Shown: one piece after another, positions 3,076-57,062 of the stretch | Numbering within the stretch: position 1 is the first letter of the stretch | Layout of the letters: each line of letters begins with the position of its first letter | Program-made: the position numbers and the translations under genes | Notes under the pieces: model-generated | Database searches by the model: none | The model's input: the letters and a program-made list of their open reading frames with translations, nothing else | What the model was told of the DNA's origin: nothing | NCBI GenBank assembly: GCA_038248895.1 | Contig: JBBRWZ010000004.1 | Span: 1 to 61,494, forward strand | Reading direction: 5' to 3' | Length of the DNA: 61,494 nucleotides | From: Candidatus Limnocylindria bacterium | GTDB lineage: Bacteria > Chloroflexota > Limnocylindria > QHBO01

Positions 3076-6000
3076 ATGACCATGACGGACACCTCGTACG
3101 CCTCGTACGCCCCCTACGCCGAGCTCCACGCCCACAGCAACTTCAGCTTCCTCGATGGCGCGTCGCACCCCGAGGAGCTCGTGGCGACCGCGGCGTTGCT
3201 GGGCCTGCCAGCATTGGCGATCACCGACCACGCCGGCATGTACGGCGCCGTGCGGCTCTGGAAGGCGGCGCGCGAGACCAGGACCGATGCGGCTCGCGAG
3301 GCGGGGCTGCGGCCGGTGCGCCCGATCATCGGTCTCGAGGTGGCGATCCCGCGTGACGAGGGGGAGCTCCGCGCCGCGCACCGCGGCCGCAAGCTCAACG
3401 ACCCGCACCGCGGGGAGCGTGCGAGCCGTGGCTGGCCCGGCGAGCTGCATGCCGGACCGATCCCCGGCGATCACCTCGTCCTGCTGGCGCGCGACGCGAC
3501 CGGCTACGCCGCGCTCTCGCGGCTCGCCTCGCGCGGCCACCTCGCCGGGGAGAAGCAGTTCCCCGTCTTCGAACGCGCCCTCGTCGAGGCCACGCTCGAC
3601 GACGCGCGCGGCCATCTCGTCGCGCTCACCGGCTGTCGCAACGGGGAGGTGCCACGGCACCTGCTGGCTGGCGACCCCGCCGCCGCGCGGGCTGCCGCGA
3701 AGCGTTTGGCGCACCACCTGCCCGACGGCGATCTCCTGGTTGAGCTGGGCCACCACCTCGCTCCCGACGACGACTGGCTCGTGGCGCAGCTCGCCGAGCT
3801 GGCGGACGCGACCGGCCTGCCGACGGTCGTCACCAACGAGGTGCACCACGCCACGCGCGACGGGAAGCGGCTCCAGGACGTGCTCGTCTGCATCCGCCAC
3901 GGCGCCACGCTCGATGAGGCGCGCGAGCTCCTGCTTCCCAACGCCGAGCACGTGTTGAAGGATGCCGCCGAGCTGGCGAGCATCGGTCGTGGCCTGCCCG
4001 ACCAGCGCAGCCGCCGCGCGTGGGCGGACGGGATGGCGCGCGCCGGCGACATCGGTCTGGCGTGCGAGCTGGACCTCGACTTCGAGCGTTACCGGTTTCC
4101 CGGGTTCACGGTCCCCGAGGGCGAGACGCCGTTCTCATATCTCTACCAGCTTGCCCACGATGGCTTACGCGTCCGTTATCGGCCCATTACCAAGCGCGCC
4201 CTGAACCAGCTGACGCACGAGCTCGACATCATCGACCGCACCAACCTCTCGGAGTTCTTCCTCATCGTCTGGGACCTGATGGAGTTCGCGCGGCGCGGGA
4301 AGATCATTGGCCAGGGGCGGGGGAGCGCCGGCGACTCGATCGTGGCCTACTGCCTGGGCATCACCAAGGTCGACCCGATCGCCCACAAGCTCCTCTTCGA
4401 GCGCTTCATCAACGAGGCGCGCGCGCTGCCGGACATCGACATCGACGTCGATGTGCACCGCCGCGAGGAGGTGATCCAGTACCTCTACACCCGCTACGGC
4501 GAGGACCACGCCGCCATGGTCTGCACCGTCATCACCTACCGCGCCCGCTCGGCGGTGCGCGAGGTGGCGAAGGCGCTGGGCTTCCCGACCGATGCGGTCG
4601 ACCGCCTGGCGAAGGCGCTCGACACCCGTGATGCGACCGATGTCGCCCGCGACCTCGCCCTCGACGGCTCGTTCGCCTGGCTCTTCGATGAGCTGGGGAT
4701 CGAGATGGGGGAGGCGGCCATTCCGCCGGGTCGAGACGGACGCGCCGATCCGGGGCTGGTGGGGCGCAGCTCCGATTCGTCGTGGAACCATCGGCCGCGG
4801 CCGATGCTCGACCCGGGTGCCGTGGACGGGGCCGCGGCGCGCCCGGTGAGCGAGGGCGGCTGGTACCCGCCGCGCAAGGCGCGCGTGCTCGATGCGTCAT
4901 TCACGACCGTGAAGCACGAGTCGGAGACGACGAAGCGCTACGCGCGCTCCGGAGAGTTGACCGGTGCCGAGCTCACCGGTGCCGAGCTCACCGGTGCCGA
5001 GCTGAGCGGCACCGAATGGAGCGGCGGCGACCTGCGGCTGCCACAGCCGCGCGACAACGGCTCGCCCGGCCCGTCGAGCAGTCGCCCGGCGATCGTCCGC
5101 GTCGACCCGGAGAGCGGAATGCCGATCGAGGAGCGGCGTCGGCCCCGCGTCGTGCCGGAGATGCCGCCGGTTGCCGCACGACTTGATCAGATTGGCGCCA
5201 CGGGACCGCTAAGCCAGGTGCCGGAGGCTCGAATGGGCCGAGCAGGCTCAGAAAGCTATGCAAATCTGCGTATCCAGGGCTTCCCAGCGACCGAGACTGG
5301 TGCTAGCGGTCCCACCACGACCGTTGGACACGAAACGGGTCGGGAAGAGGCGGCGAACCGGAACCAGAACGTGCCACGGAACCAGAACCGATGGCAGTGG
5401 CTCCTCACCCTGTGCGCCGAGATCGACGGCTTTCCACGTCACCTCGGCATCCACGTCGGGGGGATGCTCGTGACGCGGACCCCACTTATCGACCTCGTCC
5501 CGATCGAGCGGGCGACCATGCCCAAGCGGGTCGTGACCCAGTACGACAAGGAGGACATCGAGGCGCTGGGCCTGGTGAAGATCGACCTGCTCAGTCTCCG
5601 CACGCTGGGCGTCGTCAGCGATGCGCTCGACCGGATCGAGCGCGACACGGGACGCAGGATCGACCTCGACGCGCTCGCGCACGACGACCCCGAGGTGTAT
5701 CGGTCCATCCAGTCGGCCGACACGGTGGGCATGTTCCAGATCGAGTCGCGCGCCCAGATGCAGAGCCTCCCCAAGGCGCGGCCGGAGCGCTTCGAGGATC
5801 TCGTCGTCCAGGTCGCGATCATTCGCCCCGGGCCAGTGCAGGGCAACGCCGTCCACCCATACCTGCGACGACGCGCCGGCGAGGAGGAAGTGACCTACGC
5901 GCACCCGAGCCTGCAACCCATCCTGGAGGACACCCTGGGCGTGATCCTCTACCAGGAGCAGGTGATGCAGGTCGCGATCGATGTCTGCGGCTACAGCCCC

Positions 6001-7149
6001 ACCGAGGCGGACATCTTCCGCAAGGCGATGGGCAGCCACCGCTCCCACGCCAAGATGCAGGCGGAGCGTGGCCGTTTCGTGGGCGGGGCCGTGCGCACCG
6101 GGCTCACGGAGGAGGACGCGGAGGCGCTCTTCCAGAAATGCTCCGCCTTCGCCGAGTTTGGCTTCGCCCGCGCCCACGCGGCCGCGTTCGCGAAGATCAC
6201 GTACGACACCGCCTGGCTGAAGCACTACTACCCGGCGCACTACACCGTGGGCGTGCTGAACAACCAGCCGATGGGCTTCTACTCGCCGGCGGTCGTCATC
6301 AACGACGCCAAGCGACACGGCATCCGCGTCCTGCCGATCGACGTCAACGAGTCCGCCTGGGAGCACGACACGCGCCTCGGCAAGCCCGAGCCCGATGCCG
6401 CCACCGCCTGGGTCATCCGCCTCGGGCTGCGCCAGGTGAAGGGGATCGACGAGCGGGCGCGCGAGACGCTCGAGCGTGAACGCGCCATCGGTCCATACGC
6501 GGGCGTCCGCGACTTCGTGGCCCGCACTCAGGTTGGCGAGCAGGTGGTGGAGCGGCTCATCAGCATCGGTGCCTTCGACTGGACCGATGTGCCCCGCCGC
6601 GAGCTCCTCTGGCAGCTGCGCAGCACCCTGCCGGATGCGGATCCGGCGCGTCCCGCGCTGGGCCTGACCGATGACGCCCAGCGCGCGCTGGGCGCCTCAC
6701 TGCCACCGATGAGCGTGGCCGAGCGGGTCGCCGCCGACTACCGCGAGACCGGTGTCAGCCCGCACCTGCATGCCGTCGAGCTGTTCCGCGAGCGCCTCGC
6801 CGAACGCGGCGTCATCACCGTCGCGGCCGCCGCCGAGCTGCGCGACGGGGCCAGGATCCGGATCGCCGGGCTGGGGGTCAGCGTCCAGCACCCGATGACC
6901 GCCAAGAACTTCGTTTTCATCGCGCTCGAGGACGAGTCGGGGATGATCAACGTCACGCTGCGGCCGCAGGTCTACACCGCGCACCGCGCGCTGCTGCATC
7001 GGTCGCCCCTGCTCGTGATCGACGGGAAGCTCCAGGTGGAGGGAGCGGTCCTCAACGTCATCGCGCGGCGGCTGCACACCGTCGACGAGCTGCTCCAGCA
7101 GGAGCCGGGACGCCTCGACCTGGCGAAGCAGCAGCGCATGTTCCGCTGA
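3076..7149 (+). CDS. dnaE2: error-prone DNA polymerase III alpha subunit DnaE2 (ImuC) with large insertion
   Basis: PHP motif ELHAHSNFSFLDG, GRGSAG, catalytic PDIDID, PRHLGIHVGG, GMFQIESRAQM, NNQPMGFYSP, C-terminal OB fold; ends QQRMFR (SRDFR-like); SOS box upstream. Confidence 0.93.
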   Translation: MTMTDTSYASYAPYAELHAHSNFSFLDGASHPEELVATAALLGLPALAITDHAGMYGAVRLWKAARETRTDAAREAGLRPVRPIIGLEVAIPRDEGELRAAHRGRKLNDPHRGERASRGWPGELHAGPIPGDHLVLLARDATGYAALSRLASRGHLAGEKQFPVFERALVEATLDDARGHLVALTGCRNGEVPRHLLAGDPAAARAAAKRLAHHLPDGDLLVELGHHLAPDDDWLVAQLAELADATGLPTVVTNEVHHATRDGKRLQDVLVCIRHGATLDEARELLLPNAEHVLKDAAELASIGRGLPDQRSRRAWADGMARAGDIGLACELDLDFERYRFPGFTVPEGETPFSYLYQLAHDGLRVRYRPITKRALNQLTHELDIIDRTNLSEFFLIVWDLMEFARRGKIIGQGRGSAGDSIVAYCLGITKVDPIAHKLLFERFINEARALPDIDIDVDVHRREEVIQYLYTRYGEDHAAMVCTVITYRARSAVREVAKALGFPTDAVDRLAKALDTRDATDVARDLALDGSFAWLFDELGIEMGEAAIPPGRDGRADPGLVGRSSDSSWNHRPRPMLDPGAVDGAAARPVSEGGWYPPRKARVLDASFTTVKHESETTKRYARSGELTGAELTGAELTGAELSGTEWSGGDLRLPQPRDNGSPGPSSSRPAIVRVDPESGMPIEERRRPRVVPEMPPVAARLDQIGATGPLSQVPEARMGRAGSESYANLRIQGFPATETGASGPTTTVGHETGREEAANRNQNVPRNQNRWQWLLTLCAEIDGFPRHLGIHVGGMLVTRTPLIDLVPIERATMPKRVVTQYDKEDIEALGLVKIDLLSLRTLGVVSDALDRIERDTGRRIDLDALAHDDPEVYRSIQSADTVGMFQIESRAQMQSLPKARPERFEDLVVQVAIIRPGPVQGNAVHPYLRRRAGEEEVTYAHPSLQPILEDTLGVILYQEQVMQVAIDVCGYSPTEADIFRKAMGSHRSHAKMQAERGRFVGGAVRTGLTEEDAEALFQKCSAFAEFGFARAHAAAFAKITYDTAWLKHYYPAHYTVGVLNNQPMGFYSPAVVINDAKRHGIRVLPIDVNESAWEHDTRLGKPEPDAATAWVIRLGLRQVKGIDERARETLERERAIGPYAGVRDFVARTQVGEQVVERLISIGAFDWTDVPRRELLWQLRSTLPDADPARPALGLTDDAQRALGASLPPMSVAERVAADYRETGVSPHLHAVELFRERLAERGVITVAAAAELRDGARIRIAGLGVSVQHPMTAKNFVFIALEDESGMINVTLRPQVYTAHRALLHRSPLLVIDGKLQVEGAVLNVIARRLHTVDELLQQEPGRLDLAKQQRMFR
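4954..5028 (+). repeat. 15-bp tandem repeat x5 (degenerating) encoding ELTGA units inside dnaE2
   Basis: gagttgaccggtgcc/gagctcaccggtgcc/gagctcaccggtgcc/gagctgagcggcacc/gaatggagcggcggc. Confidence 0.9.
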
Positions 7150-7185
7150 CCCACTGACGCTGCGGCGCGGTCTACCATCGGTCGC

Positions 7186-8196
7186 ATGACGACCGACGAG
7201 GAGCCGCGCGGCCGCACCGAGAACGAGCTCCGCGGGCGCACCGAGAACGAGCTCCGCGGGCGCACCGAGCGCTGGCTGCTCGTCGCGCTGGCCGGCTATG
7301 CCGCCGTGGTCGTGGCGCTCATGTTCACGACCGGCCTGCGCATCACGCCCGACGTGCTGGTGGTGGCGCTCGCGCTGGCGGCCGTGCTGATGGGACGGTC
7401 GCGCCTCTTCCTGCGCGACTGGATCCCGTTCGTCGTCATCTTCCTCGCCTATGAGCTGATGCGCGGGATCGCCGACGATGCCGGATTCCCCGTCCACGTG
7501 CAGGACGTCGCGAGCATCGAGCGCGCGCTCTTCGGCGGGACGCTGCCAACCGCCTGGCTGCAGGACCACCTCGCGGCCGCACAGCAGCCGGGGCCGGCCG
7601 CGATCTTCGGGACTGTCCTGTACATGCTCCACTTCGCGCTGCCGGTGGTGACCGGCTTCCTGCTCTGGGTGTGGCGCCGCCCGCGCTACCACGAGTACCT
7701 CGCCGCCTTCGTCCTGCTCAGCTTCGCGGGCTTCCTCACGTTCCTCTTCCTGCCGGTCGCGCCGCCGTGGCTGGCCGCGCAGGAGGGATTCCTGAATGGA
7801 CCGGACGGCAGACCGATCCTCACCTACCTGAAGCCTGACGCCTTCACCGCCATCGCCGAGGCCCTCGGCTACCCGGACGGGCAGGAACTCACCTCGTACG
7901 TCTTCTACGGCGTCAACCCGAACGGCGTCGCGGCGTTCCCGTCGCTCCACGCCGGGTATCCGTTCCTCTCGTTCCTCGTCCTGCGCGGCGCCTTCGGACG
8001 GATCGGCTGGCTCGCGTTGGGGTACGCGATCCTCGTCTGGTGGGCGGTCGTGTTCCTGGGCGATCACTACGTCGTCGATATCGTGGGCGGCGTCGCGTAT
8101 GCCACCGCCGCATATGTCGGCGGGCCGCGGCTTGCCGGGTGGATCGGGGCGGCGTTCCGCTGGCTGCCGTGGCGCCGCGAACGGGCCACAGGTTGA
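7186..8196 (+). CDS. PAP2-superfamily membrane protein (AUR1/IPC-synthase-like, PAP2_3)
   Basis: multiple TM segments, PVAPPW, AAFPSLHAG and DHYVVD motifs. Confidence 0.85.
   Translation: MTTDEEPRGRTENELRGRTENELRGRTERWLLVALAGYAAVVVALMFTTGLRITPDVLVVALALAAVLMGRSRLFLRDWIPFVVIFLAYELMRGIADDAGFPVHVQDVASIERALFGGTLPTAWLQDHLAAAQQPGPAAIFGTVLYMLHFALPVVTGFLLWVWRRPRYHEYLAAFVLLSFAGFLTFLFLPVAPPWLAAQEGFLNGPDGRPILTYLKPDAFTAIAEALGYPDGQELTSYVFYGVNPNGVAAFPSLHAGYPFLSFLVLRGAFGRIGWLALGYAILVWWAVVFLGDHYVVDIVGGVAYATAAYVGGPRLAGWIGAAFRWLPWRRERATG
7207..7269 (+). repeat. 24-bp tandem repeat x2.6 (RGRTENEL) at the PAP2 N-terminus
   Basis: cgcgg(c/g)cgcaccgagaacgagctc repeated. Confidence 0.9.
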
Positions 8197-8205
8197 CGCG
8201 GTCCC

Positions 8206-8377
8206 CGATGAATCGCCGACTTGACGCCAGATGGCGGGCGGGGGCGACGGGTCGCCGATTCATCGGTGTGCCAGGCGCCGGGACGGCCTCCCATGCCCCG
8301 GCAGGCGTCATCCGGACCGATGAATCGAACGGGCGACGCCGGGCGCAGCCACCAGGCGTCAAACCAGCACTTCATCG
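8206..8377. repeat. intergenic four-box palindromic element, copy A
   Basis: CGATGAATCG 8206, CGATTCATCG 8256, CGATGAATCG 8318, CACTTCATCG 8368; two ~60-bp units in inverted orientation. Confidence 0.8.
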
Positions 8378-8407
8378 CGGGGGCGCGCCCGCGCGACACG
8401 GGCAGGC

Positions 8408-8433
8408 GGAACCGAATCGGATAGTGCCGCGTC
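8408..8433 (+). promoter_or_regulatory. putative ECF-sigma promoter
   Basis: GGAACC-N16-CGTC upstream of the DUF2330-like gene. Confidence 0.5.
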
Positions 8434-8488
8434 CGGAACGGTGCTGCGCAGCATCGAATCCAGCATCCCCGAAACGGAGACCGATCCG

Positions 8489-9538
8489 ATGCGACGACTT
8501 CTCGCCCCGCTGCTCGCGGCGGGCACATCCATCCTGGTGCTTGCCGCGCCGGCCGCCGCCTGCGGCGGGCTGATCGGCCCGAACGGCGCCGTCAACCTCC
8601 TGCGCACCACGACCCTCGCCGGCTACCACGCCGGCGTGGAGCACTACGTCACCGCCTTCGCCTTCGCCGGTGGCGGCGGGGTCTTCGGCAGCATCACGCC
8701 GCTGCCCGGCATCCCCACCTCGGTCGAGCGTGGCGGCGACTGGACCCTCCAGCGTCTGGTCCGGGAGGTGACACCGCAGCGACTAGCCTTCGAGGACGCT
8801 GCCCCTTCGGCGGCCGGCGCGGAGGTGCTGCTCCAGACGCGGATCGACGCGCTCGACATCACGATCCTGCGCGGTGGCGGTGATGCCGTGGGGAAGTGGG
8901 CGAAGGACCACGGCTTCCGGCTGCCGCCCGACGCGCCGGAGGTGCTCGACTTCTACGCCAACCGCTCGCCGATCTTCATGGCTGCCGCCTTCGACGCGGA
9001 TGCCGCCGCGGCACGCGGACAGGCGATTGGCGACGGTACGCCGGTGCACCTGACCATCCCCACCGACAACCCGTGGGTGCCGCTCCGCATTCTGGGGCTG
9101 GGCAAGCAGGCCAGCGAACGGGTCGAGGCGGACATCTTCCTCCTCACCGATGCGCGACCGGCGCTCCTCCCGCGGCCGGGGCGGCTCTTCAGCAGCCATG
9201 GCATGCGCCTCGCGCACAGCGCGGCGGCCGGCGACGGGCTGCTCGCCGACCTTCGTACCGACAAGGGCATGGACTGGGTGCCGGATGACGCGTGGCTGAC
9301 GCAGGTCGCGATCGATGCCGCCGTCCCGCAGCTCACCTTCGATCTCGCCGTCGACGCGTCCGGCGCCGGCGCACCATCGGCGGTCGACGCCGGACTGGCG
9401 CCGGTTGCGCCGGACCCCGTTCCCGCATCGCCCGTCCCATACCTGCTGCTGCTGGCGGCGGTGGTGGCGGTGGCCCTGCCGGTCGGCTTTGACCGGCTCG
9501 CGCGGAACGGGGCTGGGGGTCCGCTGCGTCCCGCGTGA
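8489..9538 (+). CDS. secreted, membrane-anchored DUF2330-like protein
   Basis: signal peptide ending AAA-CGG, C-terminal TM helix, GGAG SD before ATG 8489; family assignment by resemblance. Confidence 0.65.
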   Translation: MRRLLAPLLAAGTSILVLAAPAAACGGLIGPNGAVNLLRTTTLAGYHAGVEHYVTAFAFAGGGGVFGSITPLPGIPTSVERGGDWTLQRLVREVTPQRLAFEDAAPSAAGAEVLLQTRIDALDITILRGGGDAVGKWAKDHGFRLPPDAPEVLDFYANRSPIFMAAAFDADAAAARGQAIGDGTPVHLTIPTDNPWVPLRILGLGKQASERVEADIFLLTDARPALLPRPGRLFSSHGMRLAHSAAAGDGLLADLRTDKGMDWVPDDAWLTQVAIDAAVPQLTFDLAVDASGAGAPSAVDAGLAPVAPDPVPASPVPYLLLLAAVVAVALPVGFDRLARNGAGGPLRPA

Positions 9539-9951
9539 TGCGCGTAATGCGACGCTCCACGGCGGCGCTGCTGGTGATGCTGCTCGCGCTGGCCATCGGG
9601 GCCGGTGGGTGCGGCACCGCCGCCGCCGCGGAGCGGATCACGATCACCATCGCCTACACCTCGTTCGCGCCGAAGCTGATCTCCATCTCAGCCGGAGTGC
9701 CGGTGACGTTCGTCCTCGTCAACACCGACCCCATCGACCACGAGTGGATCGTGGGCGACGCGGCGGTCCACGCGGCGCATCGCACCGGCACCGAGATGGT
9801 CCACGACGCGCGCCCGACCGAGGTATCGGTCCCGGCCCTGACCACGGTCGAGACGACGGTGACATTCGACACGCCGGGGCTCTACCCGTACATCTGCCAC
9901 CTCCCCGGCCACGAGGCGTACGGGATGACAGGCCTGCTGACGGTGCGCTAG
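9535..9951 (+). CDS. cupredoxin (plastocyanin/azurin-like) lipoprotein
   Basis: lipobox-like AGGC; type-1 copper ligands HEW...YICHLPGHEAYGM. Confidence 0.88.
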   Translation: MMRVMRRSTAALLVMLLALAIGAGGCGTAAAAERITITIAYTSFAPKLISISAGVPVTFVLVNTDPIDHEWIVGDAAVHAAHRTGTEMVHDARPTEVSVPALTTVETTVTFDTPGLYPYICHLPGHEAYGMTGLLTVR

Positions 9952-9958
9952 GCAGCGC

Positions 9959-10768
9959 TCAGACGGAGATGCCGCCGGCCCCGAGCACGCCCGGCAGAAC
10001 GCTGCCGAAGAAGTAGCCCGCGATGCCCGCGAAGGCACCGATGACGAGGATCTCGAGGCCGGACGACCACCAGGACCGATGCGTCCAGCGGCTCTTCAGA
10101 GCTCCCACGCCGAAGAGGACGGCGAGCGTCGCCAGGGTCGACACGACGACGGCGCCGCTGCCCTCCAGCAGGAGATGGGGGACGATCGGCACCGCGGCGC
10201 CAAGGCCGAACGCGCCTCCCATCACCATTGCACCCTGGAGGGGCGATCCGTCGTCCGGCTCGACGGCGAGTCCTAGCTCCTTCTCGACCATCGTCTTGAG
10301 GAGCACGTCGGGATGCTCGGCCATGGCCCGTGCCACGGCGACCGCCGTCTCGCGTGGCAGGCCGTCCTCGGTCAGCATGTAGGCCATCTCCGCCTCTGCC
10401 TCGCCGGGTCGCTCGTGGACCTCGCGCCGCTCGTCGACAATCTGCGCCTCGAAGATCTCGCGCTGGCTCTTGCTGGAGAGGTACTCGCCGGCGGCCATGC
10501 TGAAGACGCCGGCCAGGGCGGAGGCGATGCCGGCGACGAGCACGCCGAACCGTCCCGCGCTCGCCCCGGCCACGGTGCTGACGACCGCGAGGGTGCTGAC
10601 GAGCCCGTCCTGCGCGCCGAAGATCGCTTCGCGCACCTCGCCCAGCAGGCTGGCCCGGCGCCGCTCTTCCGCAAGGTGGGTGGCGAGAAACTCGTCGCTG
10701 AACTCGTGCGCGGCCATGCCGGCACGGCTGTCTTCGTCATCGAGCAGGTGAACCACGGGATCGCTCAT
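9959..10768 (-). CDS. VIT1/CCC1 family Fe/Mn transporter
   Basis: IFGAQDGLVS and SMAAGEYLS motifs. Confidence 0.92.
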   Translation of the reverse strand: MSDPVVHLLDDEDSRAGMAAHEFSDEFLATHLAEERRRASLLGEVREAIFGAQDGLVSTLAVVSTVAGASAGRFGVLVAGIASALAGVFSMAAGEYLSSKSQREIFEAQIVDERREVHERPGEAEAEMAYMLTEDGLPRETAVAVARAMAEHPDVLLKTMVEKELGLAVEPDDGSPLQGAMVMGGAFGLGAAVPIVPHLLLEGSGAVVVSTLATLAVLFGVGALKSRWTHRSWWSSGLEILVIGAFAGIAGYFFGSVLPGVLGAGGISV

Positions 10769-10864
10769 GCGGTAGTGATGCTAGCCGAGCCGGAACCGTG
10801 TCGCGCGATGATCGACGGACGGAGTCGTGCGCTCCGGCACGGACACGCCCAGGGAGGGAGCACC

Positions 10865-11737
10865 ATGCGCCGTGTCCTCTGCATCGCCATCGTCAGCATC
10901 GGTCTCGTGGCGTGCGCCAGTGGGGGCGCTGCCACGGCCGCACCCAACGACGATCCCGCCCGGGCGGCCGCCAGCGCGGCCGCGGGTGAGCCGGGTGGGG
11001 TCGCTGCAGAGAGCCGGGCTCCGCTGGCGGCACCGGCGGCGCGCAACGTGATCAAGACCGGCGAAGTGGCCCTCGAAGTCGATGACGTTGCCGCTGCGCT
11101 GGCGGCCGTGCGCTCGATCAGCGACGCCGTTGGCGGGTACGTCGGCGGATCGCAGGCGGGGACGCTCGACGATACCGCCACGCTGACGCTCCGGATCCCC
11201 GCCGACCGCTTCGACGAGGTCCTGTCGCGGCTCCATGAGCTTGACGCGAAGGTCCTCAACGAGGCGACCCGGGAGGAGGATGTCACCGCCAATGTCGTGG
11301 ACCTGCGCGCGCGCATCGACAACCTGGACGCCTCGGAGGCGTCGTACCGGACGCTCGCCGCGCAGGCGACGGCGGTGGACGACGTGCTGAAGGTGCAGGC
11401 GCGCCTCGACGAGGTGCGCGGCGAGATCGAGCAGATGCAGGCGCAGCTGGACAACCTGTCCGATCGTGCCGCGCTCTCGACACTGACCGTCACGCTTGTC
11501 CCGGTGGCGGCCCCGGTCGAGACCCAGACAGCGGGCTGGGATGCCGGCGCGCAGGCCGGAGAGGCAGTGGCGGCCCTGCTCGCCATCGGCCAGTGGTTGG
11601 CGGCGGTGGGAATCTGGCTGGCGATCGTGGGGCTGCCGGTCGTCGCCGTCGGCGTGCTGCTGCTCCTGGTGGGCCTGTGGCTGCGCGGCATGATCCGTCG
11701 CGGCGCGGCCGCCGGAGCGGCGCCGCGCGACGGGTGA
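10865..11737 (+). CDS. DUF4349-like lipoprotein
   Basis: lipobox LVAC, LTLRIPA, EDVT..VDL.AR, coiled coil, C-terminal TM; SD gggaggga. Confidence 0.8.
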   Translation: MRRVLCIAIVSIGLVACASGGAATAAPNDDPARAAASAAAGEPGGVAAESRAPLAAPAARNVIKTGEVALEVDDVAAALAAVRSISDAVGGYVGGSQAGTLDDTATLTLRIPADRFDEVLSRLHELDAKVLNEATREEDVTANVVDLRARIDNLDASEASYRTLAAQATAVDDVLKVQARLDEVRGEIEQMQAQLDNLSDRAALSTLTVTLVPVAAPVETQTAGWDAGAQAGEAVAALLAIGQWLAAVGIWLAIVGLPVVAVGVLLLLVGLWLRGMIRRGAAAGAAPRDG

Positions 11738-55328: not shown

Positions 55329-55876
55329 TCAGGCCGAGCCCAGGTCCGAAAATGGAAGTGGCTCGTCGGGCGGCTCGCCTCGTTCCATGAGGCCCATCCC
55401 GTACCACGCCACGCCGATCCAGCGGCCGGCCTTCCAGCCCACGCGGCGGTAGAGGCCGAGCTCCTCCATCCCGATCGCCCGATGAAGCGCCTCGCTGCCC
55501 GCGTTCGGCAGCGCAATGCCGGCGCACGCGTTGACGAGGCGCAGCCGGCGCAGGAGCGGCAGCAGCGCGGCGTAGAGGCGGCGGCCGATCCCGCGCCGAT
55601 GCCGTCCTGGATCGACGTACACGCTGATGTCGACCGACCAGCGATAGCCGGCGCGTTCACGATGTGGGCCGGCGTAGGCGTACCCGACGACGTCGTGCAT
55701 CTCGTCGATCGCCACCAGCCACGGGTGACGGGCCAGCGTTGCCGCCATCCGTGCGGCCATGGTCCGCGTGGTTGGCGCGGTGGCCTCGAGGGACGCGATC
55801 GTCTCCTCGACCGCGTGACGGTAGATCTCGGCGACACGATGCGCGTCGCGCTGCGGTCGGCGACCTGGACCGCCAC
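55329..55876 (-). CDS. phosphinothricin-acetyltransferase-like GNAT, apparently frameshifted near the 5' end
   Basis: GYAYA, SVYV..RRGIG, PNAGSEALH, GWKAGRW; the conserved N-terminal segment (DAHRVAEIY...SLE) lies upstream of the first in-frame start. Confidence 0.7.
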
Positions 55877-55954
55877 CGCCCGACCGGCGCGGGGCACGGT
55901 TCGGGTGGGCTGCTCACCGCGCCTGGGGGACGAGGTCGCTCCACCGCTCTTGTT

Positions 55955-56128
55955 CGATATATCGCCCGAACTGAGCGGGACCGATCCGGCCCGTCGAGGT
56001 TGATCGATATATCGAACACGGCTGCGCACGAGGCGTGCCGACGGGTACGGCTCACGCTCCCTGCGGACCGATATATCGAACAAACCCATCAGCACGGGGC
56101 CTTCCCGAGCGATCCATTCGATAAATCG
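55955..56128. repeat. intergenic four-box palindromic element, copy B
   Basis: CGATATATCG at 55955, 56005 and 56069; CGATAAATCG at 56119. Confidence 0.85.
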
Positions 56129-56474: not shown

Positions 56475-57062
56475 ATGGACTGCAGGGTCACGATCCATGA
56501 TCGGGTCGGCAGCGAGCGACTCGCCTCGGCGGTCGAGCCGCTGACGGCCGACCAGGCTGCCTCGCTGCTCGAGGCGGCTGTTTCAGTCACGGCCCGGACG
56601 GCGCTCGGCGCACGGCCGTCCGAGGTTGAGCTGACCCTCACCGGCGACGCCGAGATGACGCACCTCAACTTCGATCACATGGGGGAGCGCGGACCGACCG
56701 ACGTCCTCTCGTTCCCGCTGCACGAGTGGGTCGTGGAGGGTGGTGCCTCCCATCTCACCGACGACGACGCCGTCCGCCCGCCCGGACCGATCCTCCTCGG
56801 TGACGTCGTCGTCGATCTCGACCAGGCGCTGCGGCAGGCGGCCGAGGGCTCGTGGTCGGTGGTCGAGGAGCTGGTCCTGCTCGCGATTCACGGGACGCTG
56901 CACCTGGTCGGGCACGACCACGCCGACCTCGACGAGGAGGCGGCGATGCGCGCCGTGGAGCACACCGTCCTCGGCACCATGCACCGGCGCCATCACGAGG
57001 TGGCGTGGCAGCCGGGATCACTGTTCGACCGCGCCGGCCATGCCGTGACCGGCGGCGTCTGA
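56475..57062 (+). CDS. ybeY: rRNA maturation RNase YbeY
   Basis: PTDVLSFP, LGDVV, HGTLHLVGHDH. Confidence 0.93.
   Translation: MDCRVTIHDRVGSERLASAVEPLTADQAASLLEAAVSVTARTALGARPSEVELTLTGDAEMTHLNFDHMGERGPTDVLSFPLHEWVVEGGASHLTDDDAVRPPGPILLGDVVVDLDQALRQAAEGSWSVVEELVLLAIHGTLHLVGHDHADLDEEAAMRAVEHTVLGTMHRRHHEVAWQPGSLFDRAGHAVTGGV

Follow-up and report, generated by a model that had tools for sequence, protein, structure and literature searches.

The window analysed here, 61,494 nucleotides long, carries two copies of a four-box palindromic element, a family present in dozens of intergenic copies in one uncultured Chloroflexota genome. The copy at 8206..8377, called copy A below, is a solo, non-coding member of this lineage-specific family of intergenic elements of ca. 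174 bp, each of which comprises four palindromic boxes with the core YGAY-NN-RTCR (usually CGAT-NN-ATCG) spaced by 50, 62-64, and 50 bp. In relatives, the same elements as those found as solo copies bracket genes coding for a protein of ca. 225 amino acids, predicted to be an XRE helix-turn-helix (HTH) domain fused to a PD-(D/E)xK nuclease fold, for which catalytic activity is plausible. We consider it rather probable that the repeats and the gene form a partnership of the REPIN/RAYT kind relying on an unrelated enzyme, which would bind, cut, and mobilize the elements. The initial annotation had proposed a dispersed, protein-recognised, REP/BIME-like non-autonomous element, and this proposal is supported by at least 44 copies (69 with the degenerate ones), by their conserved spacing, and by the candidate recogniser encoded in relatives.

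Structure and copy number of the elements

The two copies in the window and their neighbouring genes are as follows.

7186..8196, plus strand: PAP2-family gene (context), Pfam PAP2_3 E 5.3e-25, ending 10 bp before copy A
8206..8377, no strand: copy A, four-box element of type A, spacing 50/62/50, boxes 8206-8215, 8256-8265, 8318-8327, and 8368-8377
8489..9538, plus strand: DUF2330 gene (context), downstream of copy A, Pfam DUF2330 E 1.4e-10
55329..55913, minus strand: GNAT acetyltransferase gene (context), left of the type-B copy
55955..56128, no strand: four-box element of type B, spacing 50/64/50, boxes 55955-55964, 56005-56014, 56069-56078, and 56119-56128
56475..57062, plus strand: ybeY gene (context), right of the type-B copy, Pfam YbeY E 3.5e-27

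The boxes of copy A read CGATGAATCG at 8206, CGATTCATCG at 8256, CGATGAATCG at 8318, and CACTTCATCG at 8368, the fourth (8368-8377) with two mismatches, and re-reading of the coordinates bore out both these positions and the 50/62/50 spacing as originally annotated. The fillers contain TTGACGCC and GGCGTCAA motifs, and a type-A profile with the boxes masked matches 8215-8372 (E 3.6e-21). The nearest copies in the genome are C85:2173 (81%) and C8:7226 (80%), with unrelated flanks. In the copy at 55955-56128 each box is embedded in a longer palindrome of the TTCGATATATCGAA kind, and the box-masked type-B profile matches 55961-56122 (E 4.4e-21). This copy had been said to repeat the geometry of copy A; it does have four boxes, but their spacing is 50/64/50, not 50/62/50, so it belongs to another subtype. 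The match of 16/18 between the third boxes of the two copies is correct by direct reading. As to the two units of an element being inverted copies of each other, this holds at the consensus level only, where reverse-complementing unit 1 gives unit 2, and type-A elements average 62% identity to their own reverse complement. A comparison, without gaps, between the copies in the window and elements flanking the gene gave them no polarity, because the registers differ.

Exact CGATNNATCG boxes occur nine times in the window, against 3.02 +/- 1.76 in shuffled sequences, of which 1 in 100 reaches nine; the number of boxes within the window alone is thus marginal, and it is their spacing that lies far beyond chance. 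The assembly containing the window (G000, in which the window is contig C4) comprises 2.31 Mb in 129 contigs, with 70.6% G+C and an estimated completeness of 83%. The distances between pairs no more than 200 bp apart among its 188 exact CGATNNATCG boxes peak at 50, 62-64, 112-114, and 162-164 bp.

50 bp: 31 pairs
49 / 51 / 52 bp: 3 / 1 / 1 pairs (5 together)
62 / 63 / 64 bp: 9 / 2 / 5 pairs (16 together)
112-114 bp: 28 pairs
162-165 bp: 16 pairs
any other distance up to 200 bp: 5 pairs

A strict search of the genome for four boxes with at most 5 mismatches across the 32 fixed box positions returned 45 rows, one of them an overlapping duplicate, leaving 44 elements; the two-box pattern gave 31 matches and the same pattern read backwards, as a control, none, in agreement with the expectation of further genomic copies above background with conserved spacing. 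Type A (spacing 50/62-63/50, boxes mostly GAATCG/TTCATCG) comprises 16 of the 44 elements, copy A included, and type B (50/64-65/50, boxes mostly ATATCG within longer palindromes) the other 28, including the copy at 55955. Column-wise analyses were confined to gapless copies, 9 of the 16 of type A and 26 of the 28 of type B; when these are stacked, conservation ends ca. 5 bp beyond boxes 1 and 4, and the fillers display weaker motifs, which are TTGACGCC and GGCGTCAA for type-A copies and, for type-B copies, GAGCGTGAG...CTCACGC at the centre.

Since the elements had been defined by their boxes, box-masked profiles were used for a second search. That of type B found the known copies again together with 25 additional loci, and in the 24 usable ones YGAYNNRTCR stands at the exact offset in 51 of the 96 expected box positions. 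Identity to the consensus in the profile-found loci is 0.66 in box columns and 0.56 in the filler, even though these loci were selected on filler. The 44 strict and 25 profile-found loci thus give at least 69 elements in G000, with a box core better given as YGAY-NN-RTCR. A CRISPR array was set aside from the anatomy alone, the spacing being alternating and the repeats palindromic 10-16-mers. Variants of the arrangement also occur: a type-A variant at G000:C8:1029-1226 has a longer central spacer (50/89/49), and between two genes of another genome (G008:C16:121869-122267, i.e., L045 2370-2768) there is an array of eight boxes spaced by 50, 75, 50, 50, 50, 64, and 50 bp, so elements may exceed four boxes.

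Age, placement, and distribution

Pairs of G000 copies have a median identity of 0.63-0.64; the highest values are 0.81 (copy A vs. C85:2173) and 0.87. To judge from this divergence the copies appear old, and with maxima that low there is no sign of recent movement in G000. Their flanks are unrelated, and therefore they are not segmental duplications; both the median identity and the flanks agree with the earlier opinion that no recent duplication was involved. Crude gene calling from the G+C of third codon positions leaves 43 of the 44 elements unspanned by a gene-like frame; a tally from these calls gives ca. 6 divergent, 7 convergent, and 24 co-directional gene pairs around the elements, which shows no marked preference for promoters or for the ends of genes. 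Many copies begin within 10-60 bp of a stop codon. No target-site duplication of at least 3 bp was found (lengths of 3-9 bp, all offsets from 0 to 11; at most 6 of the 44 elements agree), and a 2-bp flanking signal present in 13 elements stems from the CG that belongs to the palindrome.

The element was found at none of 13 orthologous loci in relatives, 8 of them upstream of the DUF2330 gene (in G004, G005, G001, G006, G002, G047, G017, and G044) and 5 upstream of ybeY (in G004, G002, G005, G001, and G003). The gap between the GNAT gene and ybeY measures ca. 206 bp in G005, with no element, vs. 561 bp in G000. Synteny around copy A is partly kept: in G005, G047, and G002 the DUF2330 gene is the next one after dnaE, with neither the PAP2 gene nor the element (149-872 bp separate the end of dnaE from the DUF2330 gene in these genomes), and a tblastn search with the PAP2 protein over ca. 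1.2 kb upstream of the DUF2330 orthologue found it absent from the loci of all eight relatives (L002, L005, and L006 included). The PAP2 gene and the element, both missing in relatives, therefore together look like an insertion in G000. Alignment of the GNAT-ybeY spacer with that of G005 yielded no empty site with alignable flanks, the flanks being too diverged.

Among 41 related genomes, the two-box pattern occurs in 10, G000 being one of them, and the reversed control in none. Leaving G000 aside, the carriers are 6 of the 7 genomes of the genus and 3 genomes from three other genera (9 of 24 in the family); the pattern is lacking in all 16 genomes that represent other families of the class. 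Each of five genomes searched for three boxes has matches, 123-125 bp long in total, and favours its own box centre and box flanks.

Six contigs of G000 (C118, C95, C61, C80, C85, and C35) end in or beside an element, and contigs of one sediment metagenome run (X1) over 6000-11000 cover copy A and break at 8211-8240; these ends and breaks indicate that the repeats fragment short-read assemblies. Such a repeat family may hide genes between two copies, and on the practical side the partner gene can drop out of bins. The X1 contigs over 6000-11000 display no excision or insertion polymorphism: the short sides of their joints are 20-28 letters, and none of the joints removes just the element.

A candidate partner gene flanked by the elements

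In the related genome G006 three elements lie within 3 kb, and between two of them there is a gene (L044:2673-3347) coding for a 225-amino-acid protein in which Pfam recognises an HTH_31 domain. Elements stand on both sides of its closest homologues in G001, G008, and G002, and on one side in G004 and G005. The coding sequence of this gene, named here the HTH-nuclease gene, begins 60-110 bp beyond the end of the upstream element, and its stop codon falls within the first box of the element downstream (TAG in CGATAGATCG, TGA in CGATGAATCG) or, alternatively, in the TTGACGCC motif of downstream type-A elements. Short words containing TAAGC occur in the interval from the upstream element to the start codon (L051 929-1010, L044 2610-2672, L052 1215-1250, and L046 320-372), those of L051 being tandem GGCGGTAAGCCC-like repeats, and they may represent a conserved leader or promoter feature.

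A profile of 13 flanked proteins was searched against 251 genomes of the class. The family was found in 132 of them, G000 among them, and, with G000 set aside, in 69 of 83 and 62 of 73 genomes of two families of the class, but in none of 94 genomes of three other families; these tallies across genomes include the unpublished genomes G011, G021, and G046. There are usually several paralogues per genome, often clustered and many with one in-frame stop. Clusters within a few kb to tens of kb are exemplified by G047:C15:1875-7910, G094:C2:1395750-1399242, and G049:C2:265296-284144; clustered paralogues with exactly one in-frame stop (TGA or TAG) suggest islands of decaying copies, or possibly recoding.

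Among the best 30 class-wide loci, two or more exact boxes stand on both sides of the gene in 9, on one side in 4, and on neither side in 17. Exact boxes in these 30 loci are distributed as follows.

within ca. 300 bp of the gene: 75 in 17,646 bp
outer flanks: 4 in 63,428 bp
inside genes: 2 in 20,124 bp

When the elements on the two sides of a gene were compared at 8 loci, they proved to be direct and not inverted repeats at 7, with an identity of 0.59-0.76 in direct register; the eighth locus (L068) was out of register.

Box sequences and protein clades

In the sequences compared, the box changes with the clade of the protein. The clade of L058, L059, and L065 (support 100/99) is accompanied by 63-spaced type-A CCGATGAATCGG boxes, and that of L085, L069, and L082 (support 100/97) by ATGAC-N6-GTCAT boxes. 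L077 and L080 have ACCAC/ACCAA-type palindromes, those of L077 being of the ACCACGT type, and L063, from the unpublished genome G011, has ATCGGCTNAGCCGAT boxes. Several of the loci with exact boxes on neither side carry other palindromes with a period of 50-52 bp, L083 having a 51-bp tandem array; other box types were identified for only some of the 17 of 30 loci lacking CGAT boxes. In the second family of the class, palindromic repeats of other sequence flank the gene at three loci, one of which has direct copies of ca. 150 bp, 81-92% identical, on both sides of the gene. The automatic A/B labels on the protein tree are crude and, outside the named clades, not cleanly separated.

Homologues of the gene in G000

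The earlier statement that no cognate enzyme is encoded in the window is true for the window. A tblastn search of the whole G000 assembly with five flanked proteins detected only distant paralogues, on C13 (40-47% identity) and on C69, C37, and C49 (30-35%).

C13:38142-38798, minus strand: closest G000 paralogue of the HTH-nuclease (locus L069, C13:36642-39998)

This gene is flanked on both sides by ACGACC-N4-GGTCGT and ATGAC-N6-GTCAT palindromes with a 52-bp period, and these private boxes have no dispersed copies elsewhere in G000. No gene of the family flanked by CGAT-type boxes is present in the 83%-complete assembly; with no cognate gene for type A or B there, the case for the partnership comes from the relatives. 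Either the cognate gene of types A and B was lost and the elements are relics, which fits the age of the copies, or the ca. 0.7-kb gene, lying between two repeats, fell out of the 83%-complete short-read bin. Searches of two other element-carrying genomes, G003 and G009, gave no match to the HTH-nuclease protein.

The HTH-nuclease protein

The N-terminal part of the 225-amino-acid G006 protein matches Pfam HTH_31 (E 4e-8, 33.9 bits with a cut-off of 27), which places it in the XRE family of HTH proteins. In an AlphaFold2 model built from 73 sequences (pLDDT 94.2, pTM 0.65), residues 9-84 superpose on HipB and restriction-modification controller proteins with Z of 10-11. Residues 93-222 resemble the nuclease domain of NucS (2vld_B; Z 11.0, rmsd 2.8, 102 residues aligned) and, further, XisH-like 2okf_B (Z 9.3), AF1548 1y88_A (Z 9.1), and Can2 nuclease domains; Foldseek additionally lists BstEII and EndoMS. 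The core of this part, consisting of helix 91-104, strands 110-117, 121-128, and 133-139, helix 145-162, and strand 167-174, has in the model the alpha-beta-beta-beta-alpha-beta order of the PD-(D/E)xK fold. Pfam matches for the nuclease domain are sub-threshold only (MmcB-like E 0.022, REase_MTES_1575 E 0.015).

Three residues, E114, D124, and K155, are invariant in the 73 sequences, and E137, D144, Q146, and R150 are nearly so. D124 lies on strand 2 and E137 on strand 3, the usual position of the lysine is taken by E139/R140, and K155 is situated on the next helix. Since the canonical (D/E)xK lysine is displaced, nuclease activity is plausible at most.

A homodimer was modelled with a score of 0.63 (best control 0.01), an interface through residues 7-85, at least 67% of contacts common to the runs, and a partner pLDDT of at least 82; the score mark is attained by 20 of 30 proteins whose structures were solved as pairs, compared with 1 of 23 solved singly. 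The model thus supports a homodimer, a result that may reflect likeness to solved HipB-type dimers. The family is a small one, with 285 of 1.84 billion cluster representatives matching at E <= 1e-10. Its protein atlas clusters are annotated as 'hypothetical protein' with HTH_31 only, Chloroflexota being the commonest phylum, and PADLOC returned for the protein nothing beyond matches to the HTH domain.

Proposed mechanism and alternatives

The four-box family would be the DNA partner of the family of ca. 225-amino-acid proteins with an XRE-HTH domain and a PD-(D/E)xK nuclease fold. A protein dimer would bind each palindromic box via the paired HTH domains, and the fixed spacing would let four dimers assemble per element; the nuclease domains would then cut the DNA, and host repair or recombination would copy or move the element. 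As REPINs depend on RAYTs, so the solo copies would depend on this enzyme as its non-autonomous passengers, but they would be recognised as double-stranded DNA. To our knowledge, a PD-(D/E)xK nuclease alone is no known transposase. In its most complete form the proposal states that a dimeric HTH-PD-(D/E)xK nuclease acting on four phased boxes multiplies passengers of ca. 174 bp by cut-and-repair, and that its paralogues and their boxes co-diversify across two Limnocylindria families, as an undescribed parallel to the REPIN-RAYT system; this complete form is put forward tentatively, as a possibility that we hold with less than even confidence.

A transcribed long hairpin stabilizing or ending mRNAs, as proposed for some REP, BIME, and ERIC sequences, would accord with the folding of most copies as one long hairpin (mean z-score -4.3 for 9 type-A and -4.7 for 26 type-B copies) and with the location of many copies 10-60 bp from a stop codon. 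It is nevertheless very unlikely. There is no compensatory change between the arms, Watson-Crick complementarity within the same element being no higher than between different elements (0.50 vs. 0.52 in 26 type-B copies, 0.60 vs. 0.58 in 9 type-A copies), and in the stacked copies no fixed-register helix extends beyond the boxes, the only complementarity being that of box with box and motif with motif; the complementarity of the arms thus belongs to the consensus and not to compensatory change. Moreover, Rfam gives no match at gathering thresholds in the whole window (a relaxed search of 8100-8500 yields weak chance-level matches, the best of 21.2 bits with a gathering score of 112), there is neither a promoter-like nor an intrinsic-terminator-like site in 8100-8550, and exact spacing is unlike that of RNA loops, which usually tolerate a change in length. 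The lack of compensatory pairing, together with the exact spacing, probably points to recognition as double-stranded DNA. The same lack weighs against classical REP/BIME units moved by a RAYT, an HUH Y1 transposase, since compensatory changes are common in the hairpin arms of REPINs according to the cited part of PMC3116915. Intergenic palindromic doublets with no target-site duplication are the pattern described for REPINs in the cited parts of that literature, and a RAYT/HUH partner had been among the candidates originally named; however, a six-frame search with PF01797 (Y1_Tnp) had no match in G000 (83% complete) and matched 6 of 14 control genomes, and the bracketed gene is that of the HTH-nuclease, which makes a RAYT a highly improbable mover of these elements. 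With no RAYT found, an unrelated enzyme, and no hairpin covariation, the system is a parallel to REPIN-RAYT and not a member of it.

The elements might instead be arrays of operator or nucleoid sites, in which case the HTH protein would be a regulator or nucleoid protein, with the nuclease fold serving for oligomerisation only, and the elements non-mobile binding sites for gene control or chromosome organisation. Palindromic boxes do suit a dimeric XRE repressor and, when upstream of its own gene, autoregulation; the strict spacing suggests a higher-order protein-DNA complex, and the boxes are better conserved than the filler (0.66 vs. 0.56) even in loci found by filler. We regard this account as unlikely, since the positions of the elements are not common to orthologous loci (0/13) or biased towards promoters (ca. 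6 divergent, 7 convergent, and 24 co-directional gene pairs), elements also lie downstream of the gene, overlapping its stop codon, and many paralogues bear in-frame stops, like decaying selfish genes; the invariance of E114, D124, and K155 and near-invariance of E137 would likewise argue for a working active site. The solo copies might also be scars, if the mobile unit were element-gene-element and recombination between direct repeats deleted the gene and left one element, like a solo LTR, the solo copies never moving alone. The flanking elements, being more alike in direct than in inverted orientation in 7 of 8 loci (0.59-0.76), speak for such a history, as does the large excess of solo copies over genes. 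It would require ca. 70 separate cassette insertions in a 2.3-Mb genome, of which no cassette of type A or B is left in the assembly, and it leaves the movement of the cassette itself unexplained, so we give it a low probability, although it is compatible with much of the passenger-and-enzyme explanation preferred here.

Relation to known systems and significance

The BIMEs and ERIC-type sequences of enterobacteria are intergenic mosaics in which palindromic units alternate in orientation and are joined by linker motifs; some are bound by host proteins. The four-box elements differ from them in sequence, phylum, the strict 50/62-64/50 spacing, and the associated nuclease gene. With MITEs, which derive from insertion sequences, they share a short, non-coding, multi-copy character, inverted-repeat ends, and an enzyme thought to be encoded elsewhere; unlike MITEs, they are not flanked, at any of the offsets tested, by a target-site duplication of at least 3 bp.

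The closest resemblance is to the REPIN-RAYT system, as it is presented in the cited parts of PMC3116915 and PMC3337134: short palindromic doublets in tens of intergenic copies with lineage-specific variants, no target-site duplication found, and a low-copy enzyme gene bracketed by its own repeats, with distinct paralogues pairing with distinct repeat types. As to the first of these features, the 44 strict copies, 43 of them outside gene-like frames, are multi-copy intergenic palindromic doublets. The differences lie in the enzyme, which has an XRE-HTH domain and a predicted PD-(D/E)xK fold instead of an HUH Y1 transposase, in the elements, which are ca. 174 bp long with four phased boxes and no compensatory hairpin change, and in the partner paralogues, which are often multi-copy and many of which have in-frame stops.

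The C-terminal domain of the modelled protein superposes (Z 11.0) on the nuclease domain of NucS, which with EndoMS and restriction-type enzymes represents the PD-(D/E)xK nucleases (PDB 2vld, 5gke, 9ibq), and the N-terminal one (Z 10-11) on XRE-type dimeric operator binders, restriction-modification controller proteins and HipB (PDB 2b5a, 1y7y, 4pu7). Sequence identity in the nuclease part is only 12-16%, and likeness of fold does not show common function; the fusion of the two domains and the flanking repeat arrays set the HTH-nuclease apart from these proteins. Text searches of the literature, with supplementary files outside their scope, found no published description of a system of four-box repeats with an HTH-nuclease.

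Elements that break short-read assemblies are of practical consequence in themselves. As to the biology, REPIN-RAYT systems are so far the main known case of repeat populations that persist by vertical descent and are tied to a single enzyme. If the proposed partnership is true, it would constitute a second, mechanistically different case, in an uncultured phylum of soil and freshwater, and would suggest that such partnerships arise repeatedly; the correspondence between box class and HTH clade would then offer natural pairs of protein-DNA specificity, directly testable in vitro.
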